Shown: positions 32,519 through 51,694, counted from the first letter of the stretch. The stretch: DNA of 64,000 nucleotides from Candidatus Spongiisociaceae bacterium (GCA_965202665.1 OZ241841.1:1735367-1799366); one strand, 5' to 3'. Numbers and translations: made by a program. Notes: a model not told the origin generated them from the sequence alone.

Positions 32519-32593
32519 GACGCCAGGTTACAACCCGACTCTAAGAACAAAATGAGAAACCCCGCCCCGCCCGCGGCCCCCGAAGCGGGGGTT

Positions 32594-35308
32594 TCAGGAG
32601 GACGGGGTTGCGTCTCCGCCCGCATCCGCATCCGGATCGGGGGAGTCCGGGGAGCGGGGGGCGGCGGGGGGAACCGGGGCGAAGTAGCCGACTACCAGCA
32701 ACAGCGCCCCCACCCCCAGGAAGGACACCACCCTGGTCAGGGCCCCGGTGTTGCCCAGGTCGATCAGGAAAAGTTTGACCACCACCACCCCCATCAGGGA
32801 CGCCCCGGCGATCCAGCCCGCCCGCTGCGCCTTCCACTTGCCGAAGATCATCCCCCCCAGCCCGGCCAGGCCCCACAGGATGGACAGGGCGGCCTGCAAG
32901 ATGGTGGAGCCGAACAGATCCCCGAAGGTGAACGGCGCCTCCCGCCAGTGGTGGACGGTGCGGGCCGCGGTCATGGTCAGCACGATCATCCCCATGGCGG
33001 CGGTCCATCCCAGCCAGTTCCGCCGCACCGCGGACAGGGCCGGGCCTTGATAGCGGCCGGTGCGTTTCCGCCACCAGAAGGCCGCCGCAACCAGCAACAC
33101 GCTCACCGCCTCCAAAGGATTAAGCAACGGAAGATAGGGCCACGGGGCGGGGTCGCCGTCCGAGAAAATATTGAGAACCACCGCCGCTACGGCCAGCCCG
33201 GCCAGTATCGCGCCCGACCCGGAAGCGAGGTAGATGCGCCGGCGGATCCCCAACGGCCAACCGTTTTCCCCGGCGCCGAGCAGGGGAAGGGCCGCCACCG
33301 CCAGCGCCGCCGCCAAAGAGGCCGCCGCCGGCCAGACGCCGCCGCCCGCCCGCCCGGCCAGCCAGTGAACCTCCGCCCCGATCAGCAACGCCAACCCCCA
33401 AAACCCGCCGCTGTGCAAAACGGCGAGCAATTTGGGAAACATTTCTTCCCGCAGCCGCAGGAACAGGTAGAGCGCCCCGAAGGCCAACGGCCAAGCCGCC
33501 CATCCGTAATCGTCCAACGGGTGGGAAAGATCAAATTCGCCCCCGCTCCGCACCGCCAAAGCCAGGAAGAGGAATATCGCTATCAAAGGAAGGAGCAGGG
33601 TTCCCAGAACGTTCAATTTGGGCCAGCGCACCGCCGGTGCCGCCAGGAATCCGGCCCCCAGCGCCGCGGCGACCACAGCCATCGAACCGTACAGTTCGGC
33701 GGAGCCCAGTTGGTTGACCGCTTCCATGACCAGGCCCCCCAGCAGCCAACCCGCGCCCCAGGACATTCCCAGCCAAGCCGCCTGCGACGCGGTTTCCGAT
33801 CGGTGGCGCCCCCGGTCCAGCAACCAGGCCGAGAACAGCCCGGCGGCGGCCAGCAACAGGGCCCCCGGCAGGTAGCGGTTGGCTACCGGGAGGGCGCCGT
33901 CCGGGTAGGGGAGTTGGCCGGCGAGGAACCACGCAAAAGAAATCCCGGCCAGGATTTGCAAGGCCCCTCCCCCCGCCGCCAGCCAGAACCGGTTGCGGCG
34001 CAGGTTGAGCCACACCATCGCCGCCCCCTGCGCCGCCCACGCCGCGGCCGTGTAATAGGCGTCGAAAGCCAGCGGGACGGCCAAGGCCAGAAAAACCGCG
34101 CCCAAACCGAGGTTGGATTCGCCCAGCGGACGGAGGTTCCGGCGGGGCGAGCGGGCGATCCGCCACAGCAGAAAGCAGAAGGCGGCCAGGCCCAGGGAGC
34201 TCCACGCCGGCCCGTAAGCGATGTGCCCCGCCAGCTGGTTCTGCAAGGCGAAGAAAACAAACGGGGTGCCGAAGGTCAAAGGCCCGTCGCTTATCCAGCG
34301 GCGGAAGGGGCCGTTTTCCGGACGGCGGGCGAGCAGCAGGGGGGCGGCCATGTAGGCGGCGGCGAACAGGGCGGGGAAGGGCCAAGCGGAGGCCAGCTGG
34401 TCGACCGTGTAGCGGAACAATATCCAATGGGCGCTGATCCCGAACGTGAACGCCCAACCCAGCAGGTTGAGCTCCGGCCACGTTTTGAACCAGGCGACGA
34501 ACAGGATGGCCAAGTTGAGGGCCGACAGGAAGCCGAACAGGATCAGGTGGGAGCCGTCGTCCGCCGAAATCAGGACGGGGGCCAGGAAACCGCCGATGAT
34601 GCCCAGCGTCGCCAACGAGCGGGAGTTTTGGACGATGGCCAGAACCCCCGCCGCGGCGGTGACGACCGCCACCGAAGCGAAGGCCGGCGGAGCCGCCAGA
34701 ACCTCATAGAGGACCAGCGAGGCGTACACGGCCAGGTACAGGACGGCCACGCCGCCTCCCTGCAGGCTGAGGGCGTAAACCAGGTTGCGGCCCCGCACCC
34801 ATAACCCGATGGCCAACATGGCCAGGCCGCACGCCGCCACTACCGCCAGCCGCATTTCCAGGGTGAGTGTGATCCATCCCCGGTTCAGGGCCGTCTGGAT
34901 CAGAAACCCCAGCCCGAGCAAGGACAGGATCACCCCCACCTTCACCGGAACGTTGCCGGTGGTGAACCATCTTTTGACCGCTCCCGCCGCCCGGCCGAAG
35001 GGAGACGGACCCGAGGCGCGCGGCGGAGGCGGTGGTGGTGGTGGCGGGGTCTTCGGCTCCGCCGGGGCCGCGGCCGGGACGGGGTCGGGTTCCCGAGGCG
35101 GCGGCGCGGGCGGAGGCTCCGCAACTTCCGGTTCCGGCGACGGCGGGGCGGCCGGGGTAGGGTAGGGGGGAGCAGGCCGGCCGGATTCCAAATGTTCCAC
35201 CCGACGGCGCAGGTTGGCCGTTTGGACCAACAGCACCACCAAGAGAACCGGCCCCGCAACCAGCACGATGAACAACAGAAAAGCCAGCAAACCTATCATC
35301 CCGGGCAC
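32594..35308 (-). CDS. large polytopic membrane protein (DUF2339-like) with Pro-rich N-terminal region
   Basis: 904 aa. N-terminal TM segment and coiled segment, a PPPPPPP-rich linker, then more than 20 predicted TM helices. Upstream of the two-component system on the same strand. Confidence 0.55.
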   Translation of the reverse strand: MPGMIGLLAFLLFIVLVAGPVLLVVLLVQTANLRRRVEHLESGRPAPPYPTPAAPPSPEPEVAEPPPAPPPREPDPVPAAAPAEPKTPPPPPPPPPRASGPSPFGRAAGAVKRWFTTGNVPVKVGVILSLLGLGFLIQTALNRGWITLTLEMRLAVVAACGLAMLAIGLWVRGRNLVYALSLQGGGVAVLYLAVYASLVLYEVLAAPPAFASVAVVTAAAGVLAIVQNSRSLATLGIIGGFLAPVLISADDGSHLILFGFLSALNLAILFVAWFKTWPELNLLGWAFTFGISAHWILFRYTVDQLASAWPFPALFAAAYMAAPLLLARRPENGPFRRWISDGPLTFGTPFVFFALQNQLAGHIAYGPAWSSLGLAAFCFLLWRIARSPRRNLRPLGESNLGLGAVFLALAVPLAFDAYYTAAAWAAQGAAMVWLNLRRNRFWLAAGGGALQILAGISFAWFLAGQLPYPDGALPVANRYLPGALLLAAAGLFSAWLLDRGRHRSETASQAAWLGMSWGAGWLLGGLVMEAVNQLGSAELYGSMAVVAAALGAGFLAAPAVRWPKLNVLGTLLLPLIAIFLFLALAVRSGGEFDLSHPLDDYGWAAWPLAFGALYLFLRLREEMFPKLLAVLHSGGFWGLALLIGAEVHWLAGRAGGGVWPAAASLAAALAVAALPLLGAGENGWPLGIRRRIYLASGSGAILAGLAVAAVVLNIFSDGDPAPWPYLPLLNPLEAVSVLLVAAAFWWRKRTGRYQGPALSAVRRNWLGWTAAMGMIVLTMTAARTVHHWREAPFTFGDLFGSTILQAALSILWGLAGLGGMIFGKWKAQRAGWIAGASLMGVVVVKLFLIDLGNTGALTRVVSFLGVGALLLVVGYFAPVPPAAPRSPDSPDPDADAGGDATPSS

Positions 35309-35697: not shown

Positions 35698-36522
35698 TTA
35701 TCGGGTGATCTGGTAAACAGTCAGCAACCGAGGACTGCTCCCCATAGGCGCGTCGTCAACCGTGCCCTCTTCCCTTATACCGGAGTACAGGGCACCAGAT
35801 GTTTTGTCGTAGGTGGTCTGCCATCCCAGACGGGCGTTGACCCGGGGACCCAGGAACTCTTCGTCCGGGGTGCTGTCGGTAGCCCATCCGGTTGCGGGCT
35901 TCGTGAAGGTCACCACCGAACCCCGGAAGTCGCCTTCCTGTCGATAATGACGACCGGCCGCGATCTCCGAACCGTCGCTTTTGATGGCGACGTACTGGCC
36001 GAACACATCCTGATTTCTGGGAGATGATACGGTCAGATTAAATCCGGCGGTAGCCGCAATCGAATCAGCATGTTGGGCGTGTAAAACCCCCCAGCCGTCC
36101 GCATGGTCAGGCTTAACGTACACGCGCATCGAACCGGGCACGTTAGCCTGAGCCTGGAAGTGGTTGGAGATGACGAGGGTGTTTCCATCCTCGGAGAGGG
36201 CCACGTACTTGCCAAACTCATTGTAGGCGGGTTGCGCTAAGCGGTTAGCCCATTTGGCATGGCCATCTGCATGGGTGGCGTCACCGATATCCGTCCAACC
36301 ACCAGCGGGCTTGACATACAAGAATACCAATCCTAGACAGACACCGGAAGAAAGACTGCAGTGGGTGGAGGCGATCGTGTCCCCATCTCCGTCGATGGCA
36401 ATGGACCGCTCGTTGTTCCAACCAGTGCCGACAAACAACACATGAGTGTCGGCATCGGTGTGATCGTTATCGTCATCCCAATTACCGGCCGTGGGATTCG
36501 CGGGTTTTTCGTATACCAACAC
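35698..36522 (-). pseudogene. 3' (C-terminal FG-GAP/beta-propeller) portion of a surface-protein cassette, separated from its 5' part by the IS481 insertion
   Basis: Homologous to the C-termini of the 40750 and 45026 proteins (..SPRNQDVFGQYVAIKSDGSEIAAGRHYRQEGDFRGSVVTF..LTVYQITR). The ORF begins right at the IS481 left end. Confidence 0.6.
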
Positions 36523-36536
36523 TGCCCCGCTGCTAT

Positions 36537-37629
36537 CGCTAGCTGTACTTGGCCAGGACGTTGGTGACGGTTTGGTTGTTGCATAAGTGAAGACCTCCTG
36601 GTGTTATGGGGAGTGAAAGCACCCTATAGCACGGGAGGAGGTCTTCAGGGATGCATGGTAACGCGAGGTCGTCGCCTTTGGGACGTTTGGGGATGGTGTT
36701 GCGGGTGATAGAAGAAGGGGAACCGGTAGCGCGGGTGGCTCGGGGGATGGGCCTGTCCCGGCAGTGCGTGTCCAAGTGGGTGCGCCGCTACCGGGAAGAA
36801 GGCCAAGCCGGTTTGGAAGACCGGTCGTCTCGGCCGCGTTGTTCCCCTATGCGTACCAGCCCGGAGGTGGAAGAGCTGGTGCTGCGGGCGCGGCGGCGGT
36901 TGCGGGCGGGGCCCGCTCGGTTGTCGGCGTTTACGGGGGTGCCGGAGCGGACGATCAGCCGTATCCTCCGCCGCCATGGAGTGTTGCGTCTGTGGGAATG
37001 CGACCCGCTGACCGGCGAACCGCTCAAGTCCCCTCCCGGGCCGGTGGTGCGGTATGAACGGGACAGGCCTGGTGAGTTGCTGCATATGGATGTTAAGAAG
37101 CTTTCTTCCATACCGCCCGGCGGGGGATGGAAGGTACACGGCCGGGGCAACGCCCCCGCCAGCGGAGCGGGATGGACTTTTGTGCACTCTGTCGTGGACG
37201 ACTACACCCGCCTCGCCTACTCCGAAACGCTATCAGACGAGAAAGGAACCACCGTCGCCGCGTTCACCGCCCGCGCCCTCAACCACTTCCGCCAACTAGG
37301 CATAACCCACATCGCGGAGATCATGACCGACAACCACTGGAGCTACACCCGCAGCCGCCTATTCTCTTCCCTGCTCGCCCAGCACGACATCCGTCATATC
37401 ACGATCAGACCGTATCATCCCCAGCAGAACGGCAAAGTGGAACGATACAACCAAACCCTCAAACGAGAATGGGCCAACTCCCAATCCTGGCCCGACAACC
37501 AAACCCGAAACCAAGCCCTCCGCCACTGGCTCCACTACTACAATAACCACCGGCCCCACTACAGCCTCGGAGGCAAACCACCAACCTCCAGACTGTAACC
37601 AACCTATTGGCCATGTACAGCTAGCCGGT
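36537..37629 (+). mobile_element. intact IS481-family insertion sequence
   Basis: Imperfect terminal inverted repeats GCTAGCTGTACTTGGCCA / TGGCCATGTACAGCTAGC. Flanked by a 7-bp direct repeat GCTGCTA (36529-36535 and 37630-37636). One transposase ORF. Confidence 0.8.
36651..37598 (+). CDS. IS481-family transposase (DDE integrase core)
   Basis: N-terminal HTH (ARGMGLSRQCVSKWVRRYREEG) and rve-domain DDE core (HMDVKK...TDNHWSY...YHPQQNGKVERYNQT). Confidence 0.9.
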   Translation: MHGNARSSPLGRLGMVLRVIEEGEPVARVARGMGLSRQCVSKWVRRYREEGQAGLEDRSSRPRCSPMRTSPEVEELVLRARRRLRAGPARLSAFTGVPERTISRILRRHGVLRLWECDPLTGEPLKSPPGPVVRYERDRPGELLHMDVKKLSSIPPGGGWKVHGRGNAPASGAGWTFVHSVVDDYTRLAYSETLSDEKGTTVAAFTARALNHFRQLGITHIAEIMTDNHWSYTRSRLFSSLLAQHDIRHITIRPYHPQQNGKVERYNQTLKREWANSQSWPDNQTRNQALRHWLHYYNNHRPHYSLGGKPPTSRL

Positions 37630-37636
37630 GCTGCTA

Positions 37637-39715
37637 CTGCGATGGTGGAGCCGTCGGAGGATATGGCAACCCCCTCCCCGAAACCATGGTTGAAGGGGTT
37701 GGTAGCAGACGGTTCTAGGGTGGCGTCTAGCGACCAAGTGCCATTGCTTTGACGGGTGTAGACATAGACTTTTTTGAGTCCTTCTCGGCTTCCGACTACT
37801 ACCGTGTCGCCGCTGATGTCCACATCCCACCCGAAGTAACCATTTTGCATGATGGTTGGGGGGGTGAGTTTGACGATGGCGCTGGCGGCGGTGTTCATCC
37901 CGTTGGGGTAGATGTACACCATCCCCGCCCTAGTACGCGTCACGTCATCTGCAGCATCGTTGTTGCCCATGTCGTCTACAACGCTTTCGTAAGAGGCTCC
38001 GACGACTATTACTCCGTTGTCGGCTGCTACGGCTTGCCCGTAGCGGGCGATGGCCCCGGCCCTGGCCCCGTCGGGGTGGTTGAGGCTGGGCCATTCCTCC
38101 TGCAAAGCGAAGGTGCTGACTTTGCCCGCTTCGTCCTGGTAGGCGGTTACTTTCAGGTGAGCCCCCGCCGGGTCGGCGTCCTCCGCTAAGGGTTTCTCGA
38201 ACTCGGCCATCACGGTGGGTCCGTCGAAGTTGGAGAACTGGTCGTTGGCGTCGTATTTGACCAGCATCAGTTTCTCCTCAGCGGCTACTACCAGCTGGTC
38301 GTTGTCGGGGTCTTTCACCAGGATGCGGCCGGTGAACGGCGCCCCGTCCGGTTCCTCCACCCAGTAATGGTAGACACGAGCCTCATGGGAGTTCAGATCA
38401 ATGTCGACGCCGTCGTTTTCAGGCCGATCTTCGCTACCGTCCGCTACTCCCACCACCTCGCTGAAGGTGGCCCAGATGGTTTCGATGACGCTGTCGGTGC
38501 TGTCGTAGTTGTAACCGAGGTTGGCCCGGCCGTCCCGTCCGGTGGTCCGCGTATACCGGCCCGTACCCGACAGCGTACGCTTCCCGCCGGATGAGCCGAC
38601 GGTGATACCGGCGGGCGCGGTGGAACCCACCCCCAAAATAACGGAGCAATCCGCGTCCTCATCTTTGGCCTTGGTGCACAAAGAGTCGGAAAGGAAACTG
38701 ATCCGTTTGCCGCGTACTGGGTCGCCGAACTGGTCGGTCAGTGTGGCCGTGACCGTGTTGCCGGCCCCTTGGCCTTCGTCCGACGCCAGAACGAACTCGT
38801 TGCGGGATGTGACCGTCAGCGTGGCCGGCCTCGGCGCTTCGTCCGACCAGCTGTAGGTGTCGGAGGAGAAGTCGCTTCCGTCCTCGTTTTTGAACGGCAA
38901 CCCGGCCGGCGGGTTGGTCAACGTCAACGTCACCGTCGCGCTGTCGCCGGTGTTGGTGCTGGGATCGGTTTGGGTGAATTCCAAAACGATTTTCCCGTCG
39001 GCGTCGGTCGTCATGCTGTTGGTGGAGGACGTGGTGTTGTCCCCCACCGTAGTGCTCTGCGCGACGGTTACCCGTTTGCCTTTGTCGGCTACGGCTTTGT
39101 CGTCCGGGTCGGCGATTTGGATGGTGACGGTGACGGTTTCCCCGAACTTGGAGCGGGTCTGCCCTTCCTCCAAGTTGTCGGTCACCAAAGTTTGGGTGGC
39201 CGCTTTGGAGAACCCGACGGTCAGTTGGGCGCGGGTGGTGTCATCGGAGTCGAACTTGTCGCCCCGGTCGCCGGTCCAGGCCCACACCGTCGCGTCCGCG
39301 TCCGTGATCTGCAAGGACAAATCGGTGAGGTCCCCCGACGCGTCGGTGGTGCTGTCCCCCAAATCCACCTCGCACGCCGTCTGCCCCACTTGCCCCACCC
39401 GATTCACATTCGCCGTAACGCACGCCCCGTCGTCCCCGAACGCCTCATCCGCGTCAGCGGAACGGAACACGTCCACCGACGCGTCCTGCACCGGCTGGAA
39501 GTTCACATCCCGCACCGACACAATCAACGGCACGCCCTGCGCCCCCAGCACCATATCCTGCTCGCTCTGAATCGACACCCCCGCCGGACGGGCGATGGTA
39601 TGCGCAAACGCCCGGGTGATGAACGACGCCGAATACATCGGAGCGAAATCAATGTCCTCCTCCTTACCATGCGTCCCCACCGCACCCGGAGGAGAAACCC
39701 CCAACCGAACATCAA
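37637..39715 (-). pseudogene. surface-protein cassette fragment (Ig-like middle plus start of propeller); lacks signal peptide/SLH region and is 3'-truncated by IS481
   Basis: Near-identical to the 45026-48565 protein from GVSPPGAVGTHG through ...SLNHPDGA. The SLH-domain segment is deleted (MYSA|SFITRAFAHT). The far 5' end is fused to an IS481 fragment. Confidence 0.65.
38100..39700. repeat. about 1.6 kb near-exact repeat (direct copy at ~46358-47958; inverted copy within 40801-42415)
   Basis: Identical translated ORFs appear on the track: 38857-39570(+) = 47115-47828(+) = 41538-42251(-), and 38367-38594 = 46625-46852. Confidence 0.8.
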
Positions 39716-40060
39716 GCGGGCGCACCGCCACCGGCAGGAGAGGAAGACCGGTCTGGGAAGACCGGTCATCGCGGCCGCGCGTTCCCCGGGCGTGCGCCAC
39801 CCCAGCGACGGAAGAAGAACAGGTGTTACGCACGCGGCGGGCCTTCCCGAGCGGGTTGCCGACGTCGATGGGCAGCCGGGGAGCTGGCTATCAACCGCAT
39901 CCTCCGCCGCGATGGGAAACGCTACTCTGCAGGAATCCGATCAGCTGACCGGCGAGCCGCTCAGAACCAGTCCCGGGCGGATGGTGCGGCATGAGCGCGG
40001 CAGGCCGGGAAAGTCGCCGCACAGGAACGTTGACAACCGTCTTGTTTTGAACCCCTTCAC
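39715..40060 (+). mobile_element. 5'-truncated, degenerate IS481 transposase-gene fragment
   Basis: About 80% nucleotide identity to 36758-37100 of the intact IS481 (..CGCCGCTACCGGGAAGAAGG..). Frames are broken. Confidence 0.5.
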
Positions 40061-40632
40061 CGGCTCGCGGTGCCCGCGCTGAATGAAACCACCACCCGGA
40101 TTTGAAATCGACGAACAGATGGCGAGGCGGCGGACAGGCGGATAGCCGACTGTCGATGAAGCTGTCCTCCGTCCCCAACTGGAAAATGCCTACCGGAAGG
40201 CCGTTCGCATCCCAGCCCCTCGTCAGACCGCGCAAAGCCCGCTTCCGTCGTCATCCGCAGTTCGTCCAGTCGTCTGCCCCGCTTCGCCGCGGGGCGACGA
40301 GGCGGGTGAGAACTTGGCGGGAGTCTGGCCGCCCTCCTTAATACATGGGACCCGCTCTCCGCTCCGAAGTGCCGGCTCATCCATCTCGCAACTGAGCAAA
40401 CGCCCGCTCCCCGCTTGTTGGAACCGAAACGCGGCCGAGCGAACCTACCGCACCGTTCTTGGGCCGCCGATGTTTGCGCCGGGCGGCCGGCGGGCCGGCG
40501 GGAGGCGTCGGCGCCGGTTGGGATGGCGTTGGAGAGCCCGGCGCGGCGTGCGGTTTTGCCGTCCCGGCCAGCGGCCGCGACCGGCTTCTCGGGCCGGGCC
40601 GAAAATCGTTTTAAGAAATTTCCGATTTTGAC

Positions 40633-40660
40633 TTGACAAGTTTTTTGGGGACGCTAATGT
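40633..40660 (+). promoter_or_regulatory. candidate sigma-70-type promoter of the only intact surface-protein gene
   Basis: TTGACA (40633-38), 16-nt spacer, TAATGT (40655-60). RBS GGAAGGA lies 10 nt before the ATG at 40750. Confidence 0.4.
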
Positions 40661-40749
40661 ATCGCGTGTTGAGGCGTAGGCCCCGGTATTGCCCTCCGGT
40701 AGCCAGCGTGTTAGGCAAACGAAAAATGGGCTTGGAAGGAGTAGTCGTG

Positions 40750-43700
40750 ATGGCGAAAGTGTCGGGTCGGGTTTGGATGGTGGGTCTTTTAGTGTTGGGT
40801 TTGGTGGTGAGTTTGTTGGGGGTTTCTCCTCCGGGTGCGGTGGGGACGCATGGGGAGGAGGAGGACATTGATTTCGCTCCCATGTATTCGGCGTGCGTGG
40901 GGCGGGCGACGGATTCGGCCGGTTTTGAGGACACGGCGGGCATCGGCGCGGAGGAGGCGATTGATTGCTTGTTCCATTATGGGATCACGAAAGGCCGGTC
41001 GGAGACCATGTACGCTCCGTCGGAGTCGGTGCTGCGGTGGCAGATGGCCCTGTTTTTGGCCCGGGCGTCGATGGCGGCGGGGATCGTGTTGGACAACCCG
41101 GCTGAGGATCAGGGGTTCACGGACATCAGCGCGGTGTCGGAAGAGGCCCAAAACGCCATCAACGGTTTAGCCAAAGAAGGGATCATGCCCGGCACGTCCG
41201 CGACGACGTTCAGCCCGAATTCGTCAGTGAACCGGGGTTCCATGGCGATGCTGCTGGACGCGTTCCTTTCCAAGGCCACTCCGGGGACGGGGGCGTTCGG
41301 GGAAGCGACGGAGAAGTACGCGGATGTAAAAGCCGACAACTTCAACGTGTTCACGGATGTGAACACGGTGTCGCTGAACACCTACAACGCCATATACCGC
41401 ATTTACGAGCTGGGGGTCACGAAAGGGGTGGCGGAACATCAGTTCAACCCGGCCGGGCTGGTAACGCGGGGGCAGATGGCGTCGTTCATCACCCGGGCGT
41501 TTGCTCATACCATCGCCCGTCCGGCGGGGGTGTCGATTCAGAGCGAGCAGGATATGGTGCTGGGGGCGCAGGGCGTGCCGTTGATTGTGTCGGTGCGGGA
41601 TGTGAACTTCCAGCCGGTGCAGGACGCGTCGGTGGACGTGTTCCGTTCCGCTGACGCGGATGAGGCGTTCGGGGACGACGGGGCGTGCGTTACGGCGAAT
41701 GTGAATCGGGTGGGGCAAGTGGGGCAGACGGCGTGCGAGGTGGATTTGGGGGACAGCACCACCGACGCGTCGGGGGACCTCACCGATTTGTCCTTGCAGA
41801 TCACGGACGCGGACGCGACGGTGTGGGCCTGGACCGGCGACCGGGGCGACAAGTTCGACTCCGATGACACCACCCGCGCCCAACTGACCGTCGGGTTCTC
41901 CAAAGCGGCCACCCAAACTTTGGTGACCGACAACTTGGAGGAAGGGCAGACCCGCTCCAAGTTCGGGGAAACCGTCACCGTCACCATCCAAATCGCCGAC
42001 CCGGACGACAAAGCCGTAGCCGACAAAGGCAAACGGGTAACCGTCGCGCAGAGCACTACGGTGGGGGACAACACCACGTCCTCCACCAACAGCATGACGA
42101 CCGACGCCGACGGGAAAATCGTTTTGGAATTCACCCAAACCGATCCCAGCACCAACACCGGCGACAGCGCGACGGTGACGTTGACGTTGACCAACCCGCC
42201 GGCCGGGTTGCCGTTCAAAAACGAGGACGGAAGCGACTTCTCCTCCGACACCTACAGCTGGTCGGACGAAGCGCCGAGGCCGGCCACGCTGACGGTCACA
42301 TCCCGCAACGAGTTCGTTCTGGCGTCGGACGAAGGCCAAGGGGCCGGCAACACGGTCACGGCCACACTGACCGACCAGTTCGGCGACCCAGTACGCGGCA
42401 AACGGATCACGTTCACCTCCGACACTCTGTGCGTGAAGAAGCAACCGACTGACGCGGAGTGCGTCACGCACGGCGTGGGCGCCAACAACTACATGCGCAC
42501 CACCGGACGGGACGGCCGGGCCAACCTCGGTTACAACTACGACAACACGAACAGCGTCATCGAGGCCATCCGGGCCACCTACACCTACGTCGGCACCGAG
42601 GGAGTGCGGGGAGTGGTCGACACCACCGACCCCCTTCCCATGGGCGACCCGAAGGACGAGACCGTGTTGACGTCTGAGCCCGTTCACCATTACTGGGTGG
42701 AGGAACCGACCGGGGACCCGTTCACCGGGCGCATCTTGGTGAAAGACCCCGACAACGACCAGGTGGTGGTAGCCGCTGAAGAGAAACTGATGCTGGTCAA
42801 ATACGACGGGAACGACCAGTTCAACCTCGAGTCGGGAACCACCATCTTCTCCGAGTTCGAGAAACTGCTGGAAGAAAACGCCGACCCGGCGGGAGCCCAC
42901 CTGAAGGTAACCTCCTACGAAGACGCCGCCGCCGACGTTAGCGTCTTCACCGTACAAGAAGAATGGCCCGGCCTAGACCACCCCGCAGGCGCCAACGGCC
43001 GCTTCAACTACCCAATCGTGGTAGCCGACAACGGCATAATCGTCGTCGGGCATTACCTTGAGACGGTGACGTCGGGCGGCACCCAGATGCCACATGCGGG
43101 CGCAGTTTACATTTATCCGAACGGGATGGACACCGCCGCGAACAATATCGTGAAGCTGACCGCCCCCACTCCTTTCGCTTGCGGGTATTTCGGATATGAT
43201 GTGGACATCACCGACAACACGGTGGTAGTCGGCAACGCGTTCGTCGGCATCGACTCCGGTAGGTTGCGTCCGGTGGTGGGATTGGGCGAGGGTCAAACTT
43301 GCGCTATGTCCTCCTCCTATGAGAAAAAGGTCTACGTGTACACCCGCACAGATAGCGGATGGCCCATCGACGCCACATTTACCAGCGTCGATGCCCAGAA
43401 CAACACTGGTTTCGGGGAGGGGGTGGCTATCTCCTCCGATGGTTCCACCATCGCGGTGGTAGGACCCGGCTCGAATAATAATGGGGCCGTGTTCGTGTTC
43501 GAGAAGCCCCAAACCGGAGGCTGGGTGGACAACACCACCGCCGGTCAAGGCCGTCTGAGGGGCGGTGGCGGCGATGGGGTCGGATGGATTCGAACCGAAC
43601 GGTCTGTCGCTATCTCCGGGGACGGTTCGGTAATCGCCGCTGGCGGTTGCAACAACGAAGGCAGCACCGGCACGTGCGGAGGGTGGCTGTATGTGTACGA

Positions 43701-44328
43701 GAAGGACCCCACCGCCAGCTGGGACGGGGTCACCAAAGCCGATGGCGACGCCCGCTTCCTGGCCTATGAGGGAACGGGTGATCCTAATGTCGCTACCGAT
43801 TACGGTCAAGGGCGGCAATCTAGACATGAGTTCGCCAAGTACGTGGCGCTCTCCGACGACGGAACCGTGTTGGTCGCCTCCGGGCACTACCGAGCTGAGG
43901 CTGAAAAGCCGGGGGAAGTGTACGTGTGGAACAAACCGGAAACAGGCGGCTGGAGAGTGCATCACATCGATCGGCGGCTACCCGGCATGACCCCCAACGT
44001 TGGCTTCAAGTTGAAGGTCTCGTCTCCCCGTAACAGCGACGTGTTCGGACAATACATCGCCGTAACCGGCGACGGTTCGGAGATAGCCGCTTCCCGCCAC
44101 TACCGGCAGGAAGGCACCTTCCGGGGTTCGGTGGTGACCTTCAAGCGTCCCGCCGACGGCGCCTGGGCAAACGACAGCACACCCGACGACGAGTACTTGG
44201 GTCCCTATGTCCGAGCCCACCTGGGGTGGCAGACCACCTACGACAAATCCAACAGTGATCTATACACCGCGGTGTCCGCGGCCAATGATATGGAAAGCCC
44301 GCTTTCCATCTTCAAGATCACCCGATAA
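40750..44328 (+). CDS. large S-layer-homology (3x SLH) domain surface protein with bacterial Ig-like (Big) domains and C-terminal FG-GAP beta-propeller repeats; intact expression copy
   Basis: Signal peptide MAKVSGRVWMVGLLVLGLVV. Three SLH repeats (FxD...AIxxL...GIxxG...F.P...V.RGQMA.FL.RA). Ig-like T/V-rich domains. FGEGVAISSDGSTIAV-type FG-GAP repeats. 1192 aa. Confidence 0.8.
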   Translation: MAKVSGRVWMVGLLVLGLVVSLLGVSPPGAVGTHGEEEDIDFAPMYSACVGRATDSAGFEDTAGIGAEEAIDCLFHYGITKGRSETMYAPSESVLRWQMALFLARASMAAGIVLDNPAEDQGFTDISAVSEEAQNAINGLAKEGIMPGTSATTFSPNSSVNRGSMAMLLDAFLSKATPGTGAFGEATEKYADVKADNFNVFTDVNTVSLNTYNAIYRIYELGVTKGVAEHQFNPAGLVTRGQMASFITRAFAHTIARPAGVSIQSEQDMVLGAQGVPLIVSVRDVNFQPVQDASVDVFRSADADEAFGDDGACVTANVNRVGQVGQTACEVDLGDSTTDASGDLTDLSLQITDADATVWAWTGDRGDKFDSDDTTRAQLTVGFSKAATQTLVTDNLEEGQTRSKFGETVTVTIQIADPDDKAVADKGKRVTVAQSTTVGDNTTSSTNSMTTDADGKIVLEFTQTDPSTNTGDSATVTLTLTNPPAGLPFKNEDGSDFSSDTYSWSDEAPRPATLTVTSRNEFVLASDEGQGAGNTVTATLTDQFGDPVRGKRITFTSDTLCVKKQPTDAECVTHGVGANNYMRTTGRDGRANLGYNYDNTNSVIEAIRATYTYVGTEGVRGVVDTTDPLPMGDPKDETVLTSEPVHHYWVEEPTGDPFTGRILVKDPDNDQVVVAAEEKLMLVKYDGNDQFNLESGTTIFSEFEKLLEENADPAGAHLKVTSYEDAAADVSVFTVQEEWPGLDHPAGANGRFNYPIVVADNGIIVVGHYLETVTSGGTQMPHAGAVYIYPNGMDTAANNIVKLTAPTPFACGYFGYDVDITDNTVVVGNAFVGIDSGRLRPVVGLGEGQTCAMSSSYEKKVYVYTRTDSGWPIDATFTSVDAQNNTGFGEGVAISSDGSTIAVVGPGSNNNGAVFVFEKPQTGGWVDNTTAGQGRLRGGGGDGVGWIRTERSVAISGDGSVIAAGGCNNEGSTGTCGGWLYVYEKDPTASWDGVTKADGDARFLAYEGTGDPNVATDYGQGRQSRHEFAKYVALSDDGTVLVASGHYRAEAEKPGEVYVWNKPETGGWRVHHIDRRLPGMTPNVGFKLKVSSPRNSDVFGQYIAVTGDGSEIAASRHYRQEGTFRGSVVTFKRPADGAWANDSTPDDEYLGPYVRAHLGWQTTYDKSNSDLYTAVSAANDMESPLSIFKITR
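40801..42415. repeat. about 1.6 kb segment identical, in inverted orientation, to 46954-48568 (5' conserved region of the surface-protein genes)
   Basis: Track ORFs 40835-41170(+) = 48196-48531(-) and 41109-41381(-) = 47985-48257(+) are identical at the amino-acid level. Confidence 0.8.
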
Positions 44329-44352
44329 GCCTTTCACGCAACCCAACACGCC

Positions 44353-44389
44353 AGGAGGCCTCCCCCGCTTAGCGGGGGAGGCTCCTCCT
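44353..44389. other. conserved cassette 3'-UTR hairpin (copy 2, inverted)
   Basis: AGGAGGCCTCCCCCGCTTAGCGGGGGAGGCTCCTCCT. Confidence 0.5.
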
Positions 44390-44397
44390 GTTAAAGC

Positions 44398-44957
44398 GGC
44401 TCTTGTTTTAGGGGGGAGTTAGAGGTTAAGGGGGTTGCGTTTGGGGCGGGGGGCGAGCGTTTTATTGGGGCGGGGTGGGGCGGCGGCCGGTCAGCTAACG
44501 TTCATAGCCGTGCCGGACGGTCGCCCCGGAGCCGTCCAGCCTTTCCAGCGACGGAACTGCGTATTTGCGGGTCAGCCCCATCGCGTCCCGGAAGGCGGCC
44601 ACCGTGAACCGCTCCGGCAAGTCGCCCAAGCGGGCCAGAAGTTCTTCAATCTGTTCGGGCAGATAGACCAGATGGTCGGAGATCCGCACCAGCCGGCCTT
44701 CCCGCACCAGGATGTGCACCGGGTTCCGGGTCCGCCCGCAGTTCCGCCACCCGGGGGGCTTGCAGCCCTGCCCCCCGCAACTCCCGCTGTATGCGTTCCC
44801 GCTTGGCGTTTTCCCCCTCTCGGAAGGCGAGGGCGAAACCGGCCTCCGCCACCGCCGAACCCCTTGCTGAAGATCGTCCCTCGTATTTAGAGGCGATGAC
44901 AGCCAGTAGCGACCCCCGCCCTAAACCAGCGCAACCCCCTAATCCCACGCGGAGAGC
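44398..44957. mobile_element. inverted-repeat-flanked segment carrying a duplicated selB 3' fragment (MITE-like/ISL3-derived)
   Basis: IR-like GGCTCTTGTTTTAGGGGGGAGTTAGAGGTTAAGGGGGTTGCGTTTGG at 44398-44444, with its inverted counterpart at 44911-44957. The interior 44440-44860 is about 90% identical to 51690-52140 (selB C-terminus plus downstream). Confidence 0.55.
44495..44900 (-). pseudogene. selB C-terminal fragment (duplicate)
   Basis: Encodes ..HILVREGRLVRISDHLVYLPEQIEELLARLGDLPERFTVAAFRDAMGLTRKYAVP.LE.LDGSGATVRHG.ER, matching the winged-helix C-terminus of the full selB at 51745. Confidence 0.7.
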
Positions 44958-44964
44958 CCTTAAC

Positions 44965-45002
44965 AGGAGGAGCCTCCCCCGCTGAGCGGGGGAGGCCTCC
45001 TG
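44965..45002. other. conserved cassette 3'-UTR hairpin (copy 3)
   Basis: AGGAGGAGCCTCCCCCGCTGAGCGGGGGAGGCCTCC, 24 nt downstream of the stop of the 45026 gene. Confidence 0.5.
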
Positions 45003-45025
45003 GCGTGTTGGGTTGCGTGAAAGGC

Positions 45026-48000
45026 TTATCGGGTGATCTGGTAAACAGTCAGCAACGTGCCGGCTTCGACAGACTCTCGTATCCCGGAGTACAGGGTGCC
45101 GGAGGTCTTGTCGTAGGTGGTCGCCCATCCCATACGGGCGTTAACCCGGGGACCCAAGAACTCTTCGTCCGGTGTGCTGTCGGAGGCCCATCCAGTAGCG
45201 GGCTTCGTGAATGTCACCACCGAACCCCGGAAGTCGCCTTCCTGCCGATAATGACGACCGGACGCGATCTCCGAACCGTCGCCTTTGATGGCAATGTACT
45301 GGCCGAACACATCCTGGTTTCTGGGGGACGACACGGTCAGATCAAATCCTGTTGTCGCTTCCTCCGAATCCGCTTGAGTGTCAACGTGCCAACTTTCCCA
45401 GCTCGTGCCGGGCCTGACGTACACACGTATCGTCCCGGGCACATTTCTAGGACTAGTCTGACCCTGGTAGTGGTTGGAGACGACCAGGGTTGTCCCGTCA
45501 TCGGTGAGAGCCAAGTACTTGGCAAACTGAGTTCCGCTACCACCCATTCCGCGATTGCGGATGCGAGCACCGTCGGTTCCTGAACCTCCGTCGGACTGGT
45601 CCGCCCAGCCGCCAGCAGGCTTCTTATACACGTATATCCATCCTCCGGTATTGCCAGCGGCGATCGTCTCCCCATCCCCGGAGATAGCAATGGCCCGTTC
45701 GTTGCTATAGCCATTCCCGATTCTCAGTTCAGGTTCATCAGCGTGAGTGGCATCGGCAGCCCAGCCCGTGCCGGGCTCTTCATATACCACTATCCTTCCT
45801 TCGTTGCCCTGGTCGTCAGCCCCGATCACCGCAATGGTGGAACCGTCGTCGGATATGGCAACTCCCTCTCCGAACCCCTGGCCGAAATCGGCATTCTCAG
45901 TACTCGGATTCGGGGACAATATCTTAGTAGTGGTGGTCGGCCAACCAGCACTCTCCTTTTCATAAATGTAGACCTTCCGCAACCCTCTTTGCCCCGCGGG
46001 CAACTGATGGTGGTATCGGGTTCCGACGACGATGGTGTCGCCTGCGATGTCCACGTCGTGTCCGAAGAAGCCGTTGGCTACGATATCCGTGGCTGGGGGG
46101 GTAAGTTTGACGATGTTGCCGGCGGCGGTGTTCATCCCGTTGGGGTAGATGTACACCATCCCCGCGTTAGTACGCGTCACGTCATCAGTTTCCATGCAAG
46201 TGGCCAGAGCGTCGCGGCAGGAGCCCATTTGCACCACAATGGTTTCTCTGGGGGCTCCGACGACTATTACTCCGTTGTCGGCTGCTACCGCCTCCCCAAA
46301 TCTGGCGGCGGCTCCGTCTTCTGCCCCGTCGGGGTGGTTGAGGCTGGGCCATTCCTCCTGCAAAGCGAAGGTGCTGACTTTGCCCGCTTCGTCCTGGTAG
46401 GCGGTTACTTTCAGGTGAGCCCCCGCCGGGTCGGCGTCCTCCGCTAAGGGTTTCTCGAACTCGGCCATCACGGTGGGTCCGTCGAAGTTGGAGAACTGGT
46501 CGTTGGCGTCGTATTTGACCAGCATCAGTTTCTCCTCAGCGGCTACTACCAGCTGGTCGTTGTCGGGGTCTTTCACCAGGATGCGGCCGGTGAACGGCGC
46601 CCCGTCCGGTTCCTCCACCCAGTAATGGTAGACACGAGCCTCATGGGAGTTCAGATCAATGTCGACGCCGTCGTTTTCAGGCCGATCTTCGCTACCGTCC
46701 GCTACTCCCACCACCTCGCTGAAGGTGGCCCAGATGGTTTCGATGACGCTGTCGGTGCTGTCGTAGTTGTAACCGAGGTTGGCCCGGCCGTCCCGTCCGG
46801 TGGTCCGCGTATACCGGCCCGTACCCGACAGCGTACGCTTCCCGCCGGATGAGCCGACGGTGATACCGGCGGGCGCGGTGGAACCCACCCCCAAAATAAC
46901 GGAGCAATCCGCGTCCTCATCTTTGGCCTTGGTGCACAAAGAGTCGGAAAGGAAACTGATCCGTTTGCCGCGTACTGGGTCGCCGAACTGGTCGGTCAGT
47001 GTGGCCGTGACCGTGTTGCCGGCCCCTTGGCCTTCGTCCGACGCCAGAACGAACTCGTTGCGGGATGTGACCGTCAGCGTGGCCGGCCTCGGCGCTTCGT
47101 CCGACCAGCTGTAGGTGTCGGAGGAGAAGTCGCTTCCGTCCTCGTTTTTGAACGGCAACCCGGCCGGCGGGTTGGTCAACGTCAACGTCACCGTCGCGCT
47201 GTCGCCGGTGTTGGTGCTGGGATCGGTTTGGGTGAATTCCAAAACGATTTTCCCGTCGGCGTCGGTCGTCATGCTGTTGGTGGAGGACGTGGTGTTGTCC
47301 CCCACCGTAGTGCTCTGCGCGACGGTTACCCGTTTGCCTTTGTCGGCTACGGCTTTGTCGTCCGGGTCGGCGATTTGGATGGTGACGGTGACGGTTTCCC
47401 CGAACTTGGAGCGGGTCTGCCCTTCCTCCAAGTTGTCGGTCACCAAAGTTTGGGTGGCCGCTTTGGAGAACCCGACGGTCAGTTGGGCGCGGGTGGTGTC
47501 ATCGGAGTCGAACTTGTCGCCCCGGTCGCCGGTCCAGGCCCACACCGTCGCGTCCGCGTCCGTGATCTGCAAGGACAAATCGGTGAGGTCCCCCGACGCG
47601 TCGGTGGTGCTGTCCCCCAAATCCACCTCGCACGCCGTCTGCCCCACTTGCCCCACCCGATTCACATTCGCCGTAACGCACGCCCCGTCGTCCCCGAACG
47701 CCTCATCCGCGTCAGCGGAACGGAACACGTCCACCGACGCGTCCTGCACCGGCTGGAAGTTCACATCCCGCACCGACACAATCAACGGCACGCCCTGCGC
47801 CCCCAGCACCATATCCTGCTCGCTCTGAATCGACACCCCCGCCGGACGGGCGATGGTATGAGCAAACGCCCGGGTGATGAACGACGCCATCTGCCCCCGC
47901 GTTACCAGCCCGGCCGGGTTGAACTGATGTTCCGCCACCCCTTTCGTGACCCCCAGCTCGTAAATGCGGTATATGGCGTTGTAGGTGTTCAGCGACACCG

Positions 48001-48570
48001 TGTTCACATCCGTGAACACGTTGAAGTTGTCGGCTTTTACATCCGCGTACTTCTCCGTCGCTTCCCCGAACGCCCCCGTCCCCGGAGTGGCCTTGGAAAG
48101 GAACGCGTCCAGCAGCATCGCCATGGAACCCCGGTTCACTGACGAATTCGGGCTGAACGTCGTCGCGGACGTGCCGGGCATGATCCCTTCTTTGGCTAAA
48201 CCGTTGATGGCGTTTTGGGCCTCTTCCGACACCGCGCTGATGTCCGTGAACCCCTGATCCTCAGCCGGGTTGTCCAACACGATCCCCGCCGCCATCGACG
48301 CCCGGGCCAAAAACAGGGCCATCTGCCACCGCAGCACCGACTCCGACGGAGCGTACATGGTCTCCGACCGGCCTTTCGTGATCCCATAATGGAACAAGCA
48401 ATCAATCGCCTCCTCCGCGCCGATGCCCGCCGTGTCCTCAAAACCGGCCGAATCCGTCGCCCGCCCCACGCACGCCGAATACATGGGAGCGAAATCAATG
48501 TCCTCCTCCTCCCCATGCGTCCCCACCGCACCCGGAGGAGAAACCCCCAACAAACTCACCACCAAACCGG
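45026..48570 (-). CDS. SLH-domain surface-protein paralog with a distinct C-terminal propeller variant; 5' end (signal peptide/start) disrupted by a poly-G tract and IS481 fragment
   Basis: Identical to the 40750 protein from VVSLLGVSPPGAVGTHG through ..PVRGKRI, then divergent. Ends ..LLTVYQITR. There is no start codon, RBS or promoter; the sequence runs into GGGGGGGGGGGGGCGGCGGGGGGGGGGGGG at 48571-48601. Confidence 0.65.
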
Positions 48571-48601
48571 GGGGGGGGGGGGCGGCGGGGGGGGGGGGGG
48601 G
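48571..48601. repeat. poly-G homopolymer tract (probable sequencing/assembly artefact)
   Basis: A run of 14 G, then CGGC, then 13 G. It sits exactly at the junction between the surface-protein 5' region and the IS481 fragment. Confidence 0.7.
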
Positions 48602-49210
48602 CCGCTACCGGGAGGAAGGTGAGGCTGGTTTGGGGAAGACCCGTCGTCGCGGCCGCGTGCCCCCGGCCGCGCGCCACCCCAGCGGTAGAAGAAGAACAAC
48701 AGGCGTTACGCGCGCGGCGGGCGTTCCGGACGGCCAGGCCGGTTATCCGACGTTGATAGGGCGCCGGGAAGACGGCTATCAACCGCACCCTCCGCCGCTA
48801 TAGGAACATTGCTCAGTAGGAACGCCATCAGCCGACCAGCAAGCCGCTCAGAACCAGTCCCAGACGGGTGATGCTGCACGAACGCAGCAAGTCGGGAAAA
48901 TCGCCGCTGGACCCGTTGGAGCCAGTGGCGGAGGGCTTGGTTTCGGGTTTGGTTGTATCGCTCTACTTTGCCGTTCTGCTGGGGATGATAGGGTTTGATC
49001 GTGATATGACGGATGCCGTGCTGGGAGAGCAGGGAAGCGAATGCTCGGCTGCGGGTGTAGCTCCAGTGGTTGTCGGTCATGATCTCCGCGATGTGGGTTT
49101 ATGCCTAGTTGGTGGAAGTGGTGGAGGGCGCGGGCGGTGAACGCGGCGACGGTGGTTCCTTTCCCGTCCGGCAACGGCTCGGAGTAGGCGAGGCGGGTGT
49201 AGTCGTCCAC
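48601..49210. mobile_element. rearranged degenerate IS481 copy (5'-truncated N-terminal part on + strand, C-terminal part inverted)
   Basis: 48601-48900 is about 80% identical to IS481 36773-37070. Minus-strand ORFs encode MDDYTRLAYSE...GTTVAAFTARAL and MTDNHWSYTRSR...YHPQQNGKVERYNQT. Confidence 0.55.
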
Positions 49211-49420
49211 AGTCCCAGCCTGAATTAGGATGTCCAGGTTTCCAGGCCATCAGCAGGCACCATCATCCAGGCTGTATATGACCTCTGGTTCAGCCTGTGC
49301 CTGGTCAGGCTGATAGTGGTCTGTGGCATACACAGGCAACAGGTATCTGACCTGCTGTTTGTTGGATGTAGCAGGTTTCTGCTGTGGATGGCCGCAATGA
49401 GGGGGGCTAGGCTCTGCTGG

Positions 49421-49912: not shown

Positions 49913-49959
49913 ACTGGATTGCCATTTGGATGTTCTGCTGGTCAGACATCAGGCCTGTC

Positions 49960-50184: not shown

Positions 50185-50367
50185 CAGCCTATCCTGATTA
50201 TCTGCTCTGCCTGGTTCTGCGTCAGGCCTGTGCGGTCAGTGCTATCAGTCCATCATCAGGCAGGACAGGAATAGTCAGGCAATTACCTGACATCCGAACC
50301 TGACGGAGCAGACCCTTGGTCTGGTCAGAGCCTGATAGATGTGGCCTGACAGACTGGTCTGGCGCCA

Positions 50368-51678: not shown

Positions 51679-51694
51679 GGTTCTTCGCGTTTGA
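51183..51694 (+). pseudogene. ISL3-family transposase, N-terminal ~190 residues, frameshifted and truncated
   Basis: Two overlapping frames (51183-51557 and 51404-51694) together reconstruct an ISL3 transposase N-terminus. Confidence 0.6.

Follow-up and report, generated by a model that had tools for sequence, protein, structure and literature searches.

A candidate cassette-inversion locus for SLH-anchored surface proteins in a sponge-associated acidimicrobial bacterium resembles the sap locus of Campylobacter fetus

In the sap locus of Campylobacter fetus, according to published descriptions, about 8 cassettes of paralogous surface-layer genes share a conserved 5′ region, which encodes the N-terminal anchoring part of the protein, and differ in their 3′ parts, which encode the exposed part. 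A single promoter is located on an invertible segment that separates cassettes of opposite orientation; nested inversions allow one cassette or another to be presented, the repeats involved are long and homologous rather than short recombinase sites, the silent cassettes are complete promoterless ORFs, and anchoring is by LPS binding. In Neisseria, the silent pilS copies have neither a promoter nor the 5′ end of the coding sequence and contribute only through recombination with the pilE expression locus; the mechanism is non-reciprocal gene conversion, for which a G4-forming sequence acts as initiator, and the segments that they share evolve in concert. In Lactobacillus acidophilus, an active and a silent gene (slpA and slpB) face in opposite directions, and a chromosomal inversion swaps the occupant of the single expression site (Boot et al.).

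A locus of comparable organization was found in the genome of an uncultured sponge-associated member of the Acidimicrobiia (Actinomycetota), within the window (the whole stretch of 64,000 nucleotides that was analysed). It consists of three paralogous surface-protein gene cassettes, A/B, C and D, in the orientations minus, plus and minus, with the 5′ region conserved and the 3′ region variable, the outer two being inverted relative to C and paired with it through two inverted repeats (955 and 1636 bp, >99% identity). The features of the locus are as follows:

35701-36543, minus strand: 3′ third of cassette A/B (originally 'A'; by tblastn, residues 921-1179 of D at 36534-35701)
36544-37619, plus strand: intact IS481-family insertion sequence, 1076 bp, transposase ORF 36651-37598 (315 aa)
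37620-39705, minus strand: 5′ two-thirds of cassette A/B (originally 'B'; by tblastn, residues 227-913 of D at 39629-37635)
38676-39630, minus strand: left arm of the 955-bp inverted repeat, paired with 41478-42432 (99.2% identity, self-BLAST)
39626-39630, minus strand: junction of the SLH deletion in B, with GGCGT microhomology
39631-41477, no strand: putative invertible segment, 1.85 kb, flanked by the 955-bp inverted repeats
39713-40034, plus strand: capB, decayed internal IS481-family fragment, transposase codons ~41-148
40633-40660, plus strand: candidate promoter TTGACA-16 nt-TAATGT (−35 box 40633-40638, −10 box 40655-40660)
40734-40741, plus strand: ribosome-binding site GGAAGGAG, 8 nt before the ATG at 40750, conserved across species
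40750-44328, plus strand: cassette C, 1192 aa, the sole complete gene of the three
40798-42432, plus strand: C arm of the 1636-bp C/D inverted repeat, paired with 48568-46934 (99.57% identity, self-BLAST)
44351-44390, plus strand: terminator-like GC-rich hairpin 3′ of C, within a conserved 3′ block and repeated after A/B and D
44405-44862, minus strand: duplicated fragment of the selB 3′ end
45029-48568, minus strand: cassette D, unbroken frame of ~1180 codons including SLH
48569-48601, no strand: G14-CGGC-G15 tract at the 5′ junction of D, variable among strains
48602-48915, plus strand: capD, decayed internal IS481-family fragment, transposase codons ~46-148
48917-49213, minus strand: piece of a further, younger IS481 copy in inverted orientation (transposase residues 181-294), adjoining capD

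The product of cassette C combines three SLH domains (Pfam SLH, E 1.4e-21), an Ig-like region and an FG-GAP-like C-terminal part that varies, and in alignments its residues 59-252 span the entire SLH domain of SbsB (4AQ1) and of Sap (3PYW); an N-terminal signal peptide, recognised by inspection only, followed by the three SLH motifs is the arrangement expected of an SLH-anchored protein. Cassette D is missing its first 16 codons along with the leader and promoter. B begins inside the signal-peptide h-region (…LGVSPPGAVG) and, by its translation, has no start codon, n-region or SLH domains; in all, the start codon and 16-22 signal-peptide codons are missing from B and D, and B is additionally devoid of SLH. 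Each cassette is a mosaic in which the 5′ region and the 3′ end, terminator included, are conserved and the C-terminal part between them varies: the three are ~100% identical over 41478-42432, where the 955-bp repeat covers the conserved Ig-like region of A/B and C, and then drop to 40-75% in the C-terminal half. The 3′ third of A/B accounts for the variable FG-GAP-like region at the C-terminus, whose last residues are ...LLTVYQITR, with the stop codon at 35698-35700.

B had originally been taken for a cassette in its own right, which it is not, the remaining third lying at 35701-36543, beyond the intact IS481. 'A' and 'B' are contiguous in two relatives, the metagenome scaffold L002 and the closed long-read genome L001, and with the IS481 removed A/B has 1017 codons and no stop codons in the joined frame; the two parts are one cassette, split by the insertion. 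The transposase scores 312 bits with the NCBIfam IS481 model NF033577 (cut-off 224) and contains the Pfam domains rve, rve_3 and LZ_Tnp_IS481, and the terminal inverted repeats, TGTAC(T/A)TGGCCA..., match at 20/25 positions. The IS481 of Bordetella pertussis generates a 6-bp NCTAGN target duplication, and the copy studied here, with its DDE transposase, terminal inverted repeats and length close to the ~1.05 kb of the family, is likewise flanked by GCTAGC at 36538-36543 and 37620-37625, whereas L002 has the empty site, with one GCTAGC and no IS. In this genome A/B is currently a broken donor, following the recent insertion of a live IS481 copy.

The original prediction that B and D run at their 5′ ends into IS481 fragments was borne out. 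The two caps, both on the plus strand and head-to-head with the minus-strand cassettes, match the transposase far above shuffled sequences (alignment scores of 90-152 compared with shuffle maxima of <=13; tblastn E 7e-7 for capB), with nucleotide identities to codons 41-148 of the intact copy of 75% for capB and 71.5% for capD. Unlike that live copy, from which they have diverged by ~25-28%, the caps are internal fragments full of frameshifts and stops, with neither terminal repeats nor an open frame, and are remnants rather than functional elements. They were also predicted to start at the same internal position in the same orientation, which holds for the strand and for the distal ends, coincident at ~codon 148 within 1-3 nt; both caps are truncated at both ends, and the cassette-side junctions differ. 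On the D side, there are 17 nt more of signal-peptide coding sequence (GLVVSL), and the G tract separates the cassette from recognisable IS sequence, whereas B has no such tract and its IS part begins ~14 nt earlier. At the tract site, L084 has C12, and in L001 the tract is interrupted by an IS110-family element.

Alignment of these junctions had been set beforehand as a test of common origin, and in detail they are not the same; common descent is still favoured by the distal end that the caps share. This boundary and the 80% identity of the caps to each other (242/302; BLAST E 5e-47), compared with 72-75% to the intact IS, suggest that one ancestral junction of IS fragment and cassette 5′ end was probably duplicated. 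The duplication, predicted in essence, appears to be old rather than recent, the caps being ~20% different compared with about 2-3% between strains (97% identity between capD and its L001 orthologue). The expected B-D offset of ~8.26 kb fits the cassette bodies (8,237-8,258 bp) and not the N-terminal stub (8,846 bp) or the caps (8,877 bp), because of a 588-bp deletion in B and the G tracts.

The sequence upstream of C is unique, as anticipated, in that self-BLAST finds no second copy of 40035-40797, promoter and leader included, in the window; upstream of B or D, promoters of another type may exist. The anticipated TTGACA-16-TAATGT and ribosome-binding site are present as sequence, and an A/T-rich block (40593-40632) precedes the former. 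In a related species the −35 box, the spacing, the −10 pattern and the leader are conserved: a paralogue there is preceded by TTTTGACTTGACAAG, the spacing is again 16 nt, and the −10 box has the form TAnTnT. A generic sigma-70 scan omits this promoter because TAATGT matches TATAAT at only 3/6 positions, which is weak by the E. coli consensus. Paralogue promoter spacers in L087 contain G11/G12 tracts.

From left to right, the putative invertible segment comprises the stub, capB, a unique spacer, the promoter, the leader, the signal peptide and the triple SLH, so that its 'off' end carries the IS cap with the SLH-less stub, and its 'on' end the promoter, signal peptide and SLH. In L002, positions 7440-9749 correspond to window 42432-40124 and positions 9747-11158 to window 40087-38676, both reversed between collinear flanks; this conspecific short-read metagenome scaffold is the sole example of the inverted state, and its orientation may be arbitrary, k-mers being unable to orient the segment within a 955-bp identical inverted repeat. 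There, the A/B body has the promoter, the signal peptide (MAKVSG...), SLH and the rest (P0123, 1195 aa), and the C body has the cap-derived N-terminus, with the junction FAPMYSA/SFITRAF (P0001, 1017 aa). In L001, the cap and SLH of D are joined to the B/A body, and C and the promoter copy are gone altogether; this arrangement is exactly what a deletion by recombination between the direct repeats D and B should yield. The flanks in the relatives are 97-98% identical to the window, and related species possess similar inverted paralogue arrays, including one SLH-less cassette.

The predicted precise, in-frame loss of SLH from B amounts to exactly 588 bp, or 196 aa (C49-A244 of C), with endpoints in C at GGCGT microhomologies (40890-40894 and 41478-41482), and what is deleted corresponds in alignment to the complete triple-SLH domain of SbsB (4AQ1 residues 4-169) and Sap. 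The accompanying argument, that a silent donor such as B needs no anchor, was right in spirit; the anchor would travel with the promoter module, and because in L002 the same cap and SLH-less stub sit on the C body, the deletion appears to belong to the 'off' end of the segment and not to cassette B.

Over the 930-bp core of the cassette 5′ region, the three copies of the window differ at 1-2 positions and the two of L002 at none, compared with 11-16 differences between genomes. Because these regions differ less within genomes than between them, their near-identity comes from ongoing gene conversion and not from recent duplication. For orthologous cassettes, dN/dS is 0.24-0.33, whichever strain has them silent, and the D-type capped genes are intact in three strains, which points to purifying selection on the cassette ORFs. 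Conversion from paralogues that are expressed could be part of the reason why dN/dS is below 1.

We consider it reasonably probable that this is a three-cassette locus for SLH-anchored surface proteins, with a single expression site, that is switched by homologous recombination in the manner of C. fetus sap. An expression module (promoter, leader, signal peptide and triple-SLH anchor) would occupy one end of 39631-41477, and the other end would be a dead end made up of an old IS481 fragment and a headless signal-peptide stub devoid of SLH. Recombination within the 955-bp repeats would flip the segment, with the module driving the C body (window state) or the A/B body (L002 state), and D, through its 1636-bp inverted repeat with C, could reach the expression site by inversion of 42433-46933. 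Because inversions could bring each body to the module, the silent copies may be donors or alternates rather than simple pseudogenes. The donor role was part of the original prediction, and it agrees with B and D being promoterless, 5′-truncated, inverted relative to C and recombined in relatives, B itself now being broken by the IS. Both caps would go back to a single ancient 5′ junction, truncated by an IS, of which a second copy arose when a cassette was duplicated along with it, and would since have drifted ~20% apart while gene conversion kept the cassette 5′ regions nearly identical. Beyond the anatomy, repeats, concerted evolution, purifying selection and rearranged relatives documented here, such a switch implies that inversion would occur at a useful frequency by a RecA-type route, that only the promoter-linked copy would be made, and that the purpose would be to vary the surface, for instance to counter phage or host recognition.

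A less probable but serious alternative is a decaying paralogue cluster with no switch, in which duplications and IS rearrangements gave three copies, B and D are pseudogenes that an old IS481 insertion has cut, the loss of SLH is another lesion, gene conversion is incidental, and the orientation of L002 is an assembly choice or a one-off rearrangement. The IS debris on the D side, the intact IS within A/B, the loss of the start codon and signal-peptide n-region from B and D, and the disappearance of C and the promoter from L001 all fit decay, several other paralogues in the genome could supply the function, and L002 is a short-read scaffold. Yet the promoterless D-type 5′ junction, although older than the strain divergence, heads intact frames of ~1150-1180 codons in three strains, dN/dS is low even for cassettes silent in one or both of the strains compared, the alternating orientation permits inversion rather than deletion, and the 5′ regions are only 0.1-0.2% divergent next to caps that differ by ~20%.

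Two further explanations fare worse. A promoter-bearing segment between inverted repeats, found in two orientations, is also what would be seen if a tyrosine or serine recombinase flipped it at short sites inside the repeats, as in inverton systems of the fim, hin, Bacteroides and Mycoplasma type. This is very improbable: no recombinase domain or gene was detected in the ORFs tested at the locus or in the rest of the window, where the only DDE enzymes among these ORFs are IS transposases, the repeats are 955-1636 bp of coding sequence and not short sites, and the L001 deletion product and concerted evolution fit general homologous recombination. That mis-joining or repeat collapse produced the repeated cassettes, caps and G tracts is hardly credible, even though errors are frequent at homopolymer runs and in long, nearly identical repeats. 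Over 41850-49232, a region that includes the C/D arrangement, capD and the G tract, a contig obtained independently from another sample has 99.97% identity, and another independent contig has the IS-in-A/B junction; the capD junction with its C/G tract recurs in L001 and L084, and the junction of capB and the stub recurs in L002. An assembly artefact is largely refuted by this recurrence, and homopolymer lengths could still change.

The sap-like switch favoured here is, by analogy, best read as a further example of the known cassette-inversion kind, and its arrangement resembles the DNA-inversion switches by which pathogens alter their surface coat. With sap the locus shares the conserved anchoring part, the variable exposed part, the long homologous repeats and, potentially, one promoter on an invertible segment and nested inversions. 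Compared with sap, it has 3 cassettes instead of about 8, belongs to a sponge associate among the Acidimicrobiia and not to a pathogen of the Campylobacterota, and has a triple-SLH anchor in place of LPS binding. One end of its invertible segment is an SLH-deleted dead end, and its silent copies are signal-peptide-truncated and IS481-capped, not complete promoterless ORFs; their missing start codons, unlike the sap homologues, count against a switch. As in slpA/slpB, an inversion would change the occupant of a single expression site, but the exchanged unit here would be a promoter/signal-peptide/anchor module with ~1-kb repeats, and there are a third cassette and IS caps. The silent copies resemble pilS in their missing 5′ ends and concerted evolution, whereas the geometry favours reciprocal inversion and the protein families are unrelated.

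A broader reading, programmed surface-coat variation in sponge-associated Acidimicrobiia (relatives of Ca. Spongiisociaceae) with a mobile module, an SLH-less state and homopolymer control, is unlikely. If true, nested inversions would shuffle the promoter/signal-peptide/SLH-anchor module among variable FG-GAP-type bodies, recombination in an 84-bp N-terminal homology (39623-39705 vs 40815-40898) would yield a secreted, unanchored form, and slipped-strand on/off control would be added by the G/C homopolymers at the 5′ ends of cassettes and within the promoter spacers of paralogues. Within the literature searched, a surface-coat variation system of this kind is undescribed for Actinomycetota.

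The selB fragment, labelled from the SelB domains identified, lies between the convergent C and D and is 92% identical to 51689-52144. The inverted IS481 fragment next to capD is 92% identical at the nucleotide level to 37194-37458 of the intact copy, with 100% identity over 40 nt, and tblastn agrees.

The window has a GC content of ~67%, comes from a closed 2.77 Mb genome and encodes three paralogues, each of ~1190 aa, in which an N-terminal signal peptide is followed by a triple-SLH anchor, an Ig-like region and a C-terminal FG-GAP-type region. The complete SLH domains of SbsB (4AQ1) and of Sap align with residues 59-252; the variable C-terminal half had no match in a PDB sequence search. 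The protein family has many members, several of them in each genome. Species-representative genomes scanned with C alone yielded no relatives at first, and an alignment-based scan found distant ones only (<=37% identity), the nearest being in Candidatus Spongiisociaceae and related MAGs, that is, sponge-associated Acidimicrobiia. The array and its internal repeats, mapped by self-BLAST of the window, are listed below.

Cassettes, caps and repeats of the array
35701-39705, minus strand: cassette A/B, split by an IS481-family element
39713-40034: capB, decayed IS481-family fragment at the 5' end of B
40750-44328, plus strand: cassette C, the only one linked to the candidate promoter
45029-48568, minus strand: cassette D
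48602-48915: capD, decayed IS481-family fragment at the 5' end of D
40798-42432 (C) and 48568-46934 (D): inverted repeat, 99.6% identity over 1636 bp
38676-39630 (B) and 42432-41478 (C): inverted repeat, 99.2% over 955 bp
37853-39630 (B) and 46090-47888 (D): direct repeat, 96.7%
39623-39705: 84-bp stub in B, also found in C and D, 95%
39725-40020 (capB) and 48602-48907 (capD): direct repeat, 78%

The cassettes are mosaics. From 41478 to 42432, all three are identical; after 42432 and up to ~43000, D is the same as A/B and both are unlike C; the C-terminal regions have diverged to 40-55% identity, the 3' end is conserved, and a strong terminator-like hairpin follows the stop codon in all three. 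The window holds two copies of the 3' end of selB (44405-44862 and 51689-52144, 92% identity), and the extra one lies between the convergent C and D cassettes; this fragment, also found in L002, a conspecific metagenome scaffold, and L084, a further strain, is a relic of the rearrangement from which the array arose.

A and B are a single cassette. In a tblastn search with D, residues 227-913 match 39629-37635 and residues 921-1179 match 36534-35701, and the two parts are separated by a complete IS481-family element (36544-37619) with terminal repeats matching at 20/25 positions, a GCTAGC target duplication and a transposase that passes the curated IS481 model. L002 has the empty site for this element. 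Removal of the IS and one duplicate from A/B leaves an uninterrupted frame of 1017 codons, so that the insertion must be recent.

The original prediction held that B and D are capped by the same 5'-truncated IS481 fragment and that B has cleanly lost its SLH region in frame. The loss is exact, 588 bp or 196 aa (C49-A244), bounded by two GGCGT pentamers. The caps are indeed IS481 fragments in the same (plus-strand) orientation, matching the 5' third of the intact transposase gene at 36651-37598. They span transposase codons ~41/46 to 148, with many frameshifts and stops; in global alignments, identity is 80% between capB and capD, 75% between capB and the IS and 71.5% between capD and the IS, all far above shuffled controls. 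The claim that both caps share one IS boundary stands for the distal ends, which coincide at about codon 148, and fails for the cassette-side junctions: D has kept an additional 17 nt of signal-peptide coding sequence compared with B, followed by G14-CGGC-G15 (48569-48601), and B has no G tract and an IS part that starts ~14 nt earlier than in D. Independent IS insertions were rejected as the source of the caps because the distal ends coincide and because capB and capD resemble each other more than they do the live IS; the caps are old shared scars.

The D-junction tract varies among strains, with C15-GCCG-C14 in the window (48569-48601) and C12 in L084 (400-412). In L001, a closed long-read relative, the tract contains a ~1.5-kb IS110-family element (8440-9960) that encodes a 339-aa DEDD transposase and carries an outward TTGACA at its end.

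The flanks of L001 and L002 are 97-98% identical to the window, and both genomes carry rearranged arrays. In L002, a short-read scaffold, the flanks are collinear with the window and the stretch between the B/C repeats is reversed (L002 7440-9749 corresponds to window 42432-40124 and L002 9747-11158 to window 40087-38676), a 36-bp indel being the sole other change. Consequently, the A/B body is there a complete gene of 1195 aa (P0123), starting with MAKVSG and equipped with SLH and the candidate promoter, and the C body (P0001), 99% identical to that of the window, begins with a cap-derived read-through followed by FAPMYSA|SFITRAF. Given this arrangement, the IS cap and the SLH-less stub are assigned not to cassette B but to the 'off' end of a putative 1.85-kb invertible segment (39631-41477), the silent end of which would be marked by the SLH deletion. 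A single short-read scaffold shows the inversion, which is given moderate weight because an assembler cannot orient a segment between 955-bp identical inverted repeats from k-mers alone. L001 has neither C nor the promoter and carries a single gene in which the cap, SLH and 5' region of D are fused to the B/A body, the product expected from direct-repeat recombination between D and B. An assembly artefact in the window itself is ruled out by independent contigs from another sample, which show its C/D arrangement at 99.97% identity and also reproduce the junction of the IS within A/B.

The promoter elements proposed upstream of C are in place: TTGACA (40633), a 16-nt spacer, TAATGT (40655), GGAAGGAG (40734) and the ATG at 40750. 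The sequence there is unique as well, with no part of 40035-40797 repeated elsewhere in the window by self-BLAST. A generic sigma-70 scan, the hits of which cluster in a low-GC insert at 49.6-50.2 kb, does not list this candidate because TAATGT matches TATAAT at 3/6 positions only; the typical -10 box of actinobacteria has the pattern TANNNT, which TAATGT fits. Cross-species conservation was therefore used in place of the scan as support for the candidate promoter. In L086 and L087, from a related species with ~80% coding identity, a paralogue is preceded by TTTTGACTTGACAAG, a 16-nt spacer and TAGTAT, with the same leader blocks and GGAAGGAG as before C and unalignable sequence further upstream; the -35 part is missing from the inverted paralogue next to it. 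At L087 17640-17760 (the same as L086 5700-5870), the tandem promoter-like motifs TTGACA-TTTTA-G12-TAGCGT and TTGACA-TTTTA-G11-TAGCGT lie ahead of one paralogue, and in them the homopolymer determines a -35/-10 spacing of 17 or 16 nt, the classic layout of slipped-strand phase variation. A relationship between these spacers and the G tracts at the D junction was considered and rejected as unsupported, given that polarity and flanking sequence differ.

The shared 5' regions evolve in concert: in their 930-bp core, the three window copies show 1-2 site differences and the two L002 copies none, compared with 11-16 sites between copies from different genomes and ~20% divergence of the adjoining caps. 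Judging from substitution rates, the cassettes are under purifying selection. The dN/dS is 0.25 for the C body, putatively expressed in the window and silent in L002, and 0.33 for A/B, for which the putative states are the reverse; for A/B against L001, putatively silent in both, it is 0.24. The capD junction is common to the window, L001 and L084, with an intact frame of ~1150-1180 codons behind each. A decaying locus rather than a switch is a serious, if distinctly less probable, reading, favored by the IS graveyard at the locus, the broken A/B cassette and the loss of the promoter in L001.

Most likely, the locus is a cassette switch of the sap-like, homology-driven kind that acts on an SLH-anchored surface protein, in an unusual host. 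The observations behind the original prediction are largely correct, and its interpretation is partly supported and sharpened. The ORFs tested, both at the locus and in other parts of the window, include no recombinase gene. The repeats consist of ~1-1.6 kb of coding DNA, and general homologous recombination between them would yield inversion, deletion and conversion, the products observed. Single-promoter, invertible-segment S-layer systems operate in Campylobacter fetus and Lactobacillus acidophilus, and the geometry matches theirs; unlike in C. fetus, the putatively silent copies have no head, in which they are closer to Neisseria pilS, and there is an IS-capped, anchor-less dead end. For sponge Acidimicrobiia, the literature search yielded no account of switching of SLH proteins or S-layers, and no report of antigenic-variation-style envelope switching in this phylum.

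If real, the system would mean that an uncultivated animal symbiont switches one of its major envelope proteins in this way, and would imply strong diversifying pressure on the symbiont surface, exerted by phage or by phagocytosis or recognition on the part of the host. The switch predicts orientation isoforms at defined coordinates in long-read metagenomes; JGI metagenomes scanned with the promoter 30-mer and with the C protein gave no match and no additional same-species isoforms. The locus also exemplifies what an IS can do to a switch: its remnants can serve to mark and insulate the silent cassettes, and a live copy that breaks one of the alternatives can lock it. In annotation, 'A', 'B' and 'D' should be called neither ordinary genes nor ordinary pseudogenes. 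In L088, a more distant relative (46% aa identity), a cassette at 10001-16363 starts just after the SLH domain, with neither SLH nor signal peptide; it is convergent with another cassette, with inverted repeats of 81-87% and no IS481 cap, and cassettes of this headless kind may be widespread in the family.

Rfam and tRNA scans detected nothing at the cassette locus. The array always adjoins genes (30441-35308) for a 900-aa DUF2339 membrane protein and an OmpR-type response regulator and histidine kinase pair, with selB and selA on the opposite side, a neighbourhood kept in the window, L001 and L002. On the D side, a ~1.76-kb low-GC (~50%) insert (49214-50975) between IS remnants holds most of the sigma-70-like matches of the region and small ORFs without family matches; L001 lacks it and has the rest of an IS481 copy instead. 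Additional IS debris on this side includes an ISL3-family transposase fragment (zinc ribbon and HTH only; 51183-51557) adjoining selB.

Elsewhere in the window, G runs of at least 13 nt occur four times in 64 kb, counting those at 48.6 and 62.0 kb. One (G13, 22936-22948) lies directly past the stop of a minus-strand short-chain dehydrogenase gene (22949-23710); another (G16, 62010-62025; C16 on the coding strand) is at the overlap of the minus-strand ORFs 60278-62110, with an Eco57I-type restriction-modification methylase domain, and 61981-63195, and is either the mark of a phase-variable type IIG enzyme or a sequencing error in the homopolymer. The genome carries selA and selB, and an Rfam PYLIS_3 match (21506-21605, 60.9 bits) falls within an uninterrupted 520-aa MttB-family methyltransferase ORF (20459-22021), which is probably a non-pyrrolysine homologue because no in-frame stop is evident. 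A low-GC island (4022-9196; 39-48% against ~67%) encodes a 1025-aa SNF2 helicase scoring best against the BREX BrxHI and DISARM DrmD defence models, an Hsp70-like 451-aa protein and a 276-aa ORF of no assigned family, and may be an acquired defence module.
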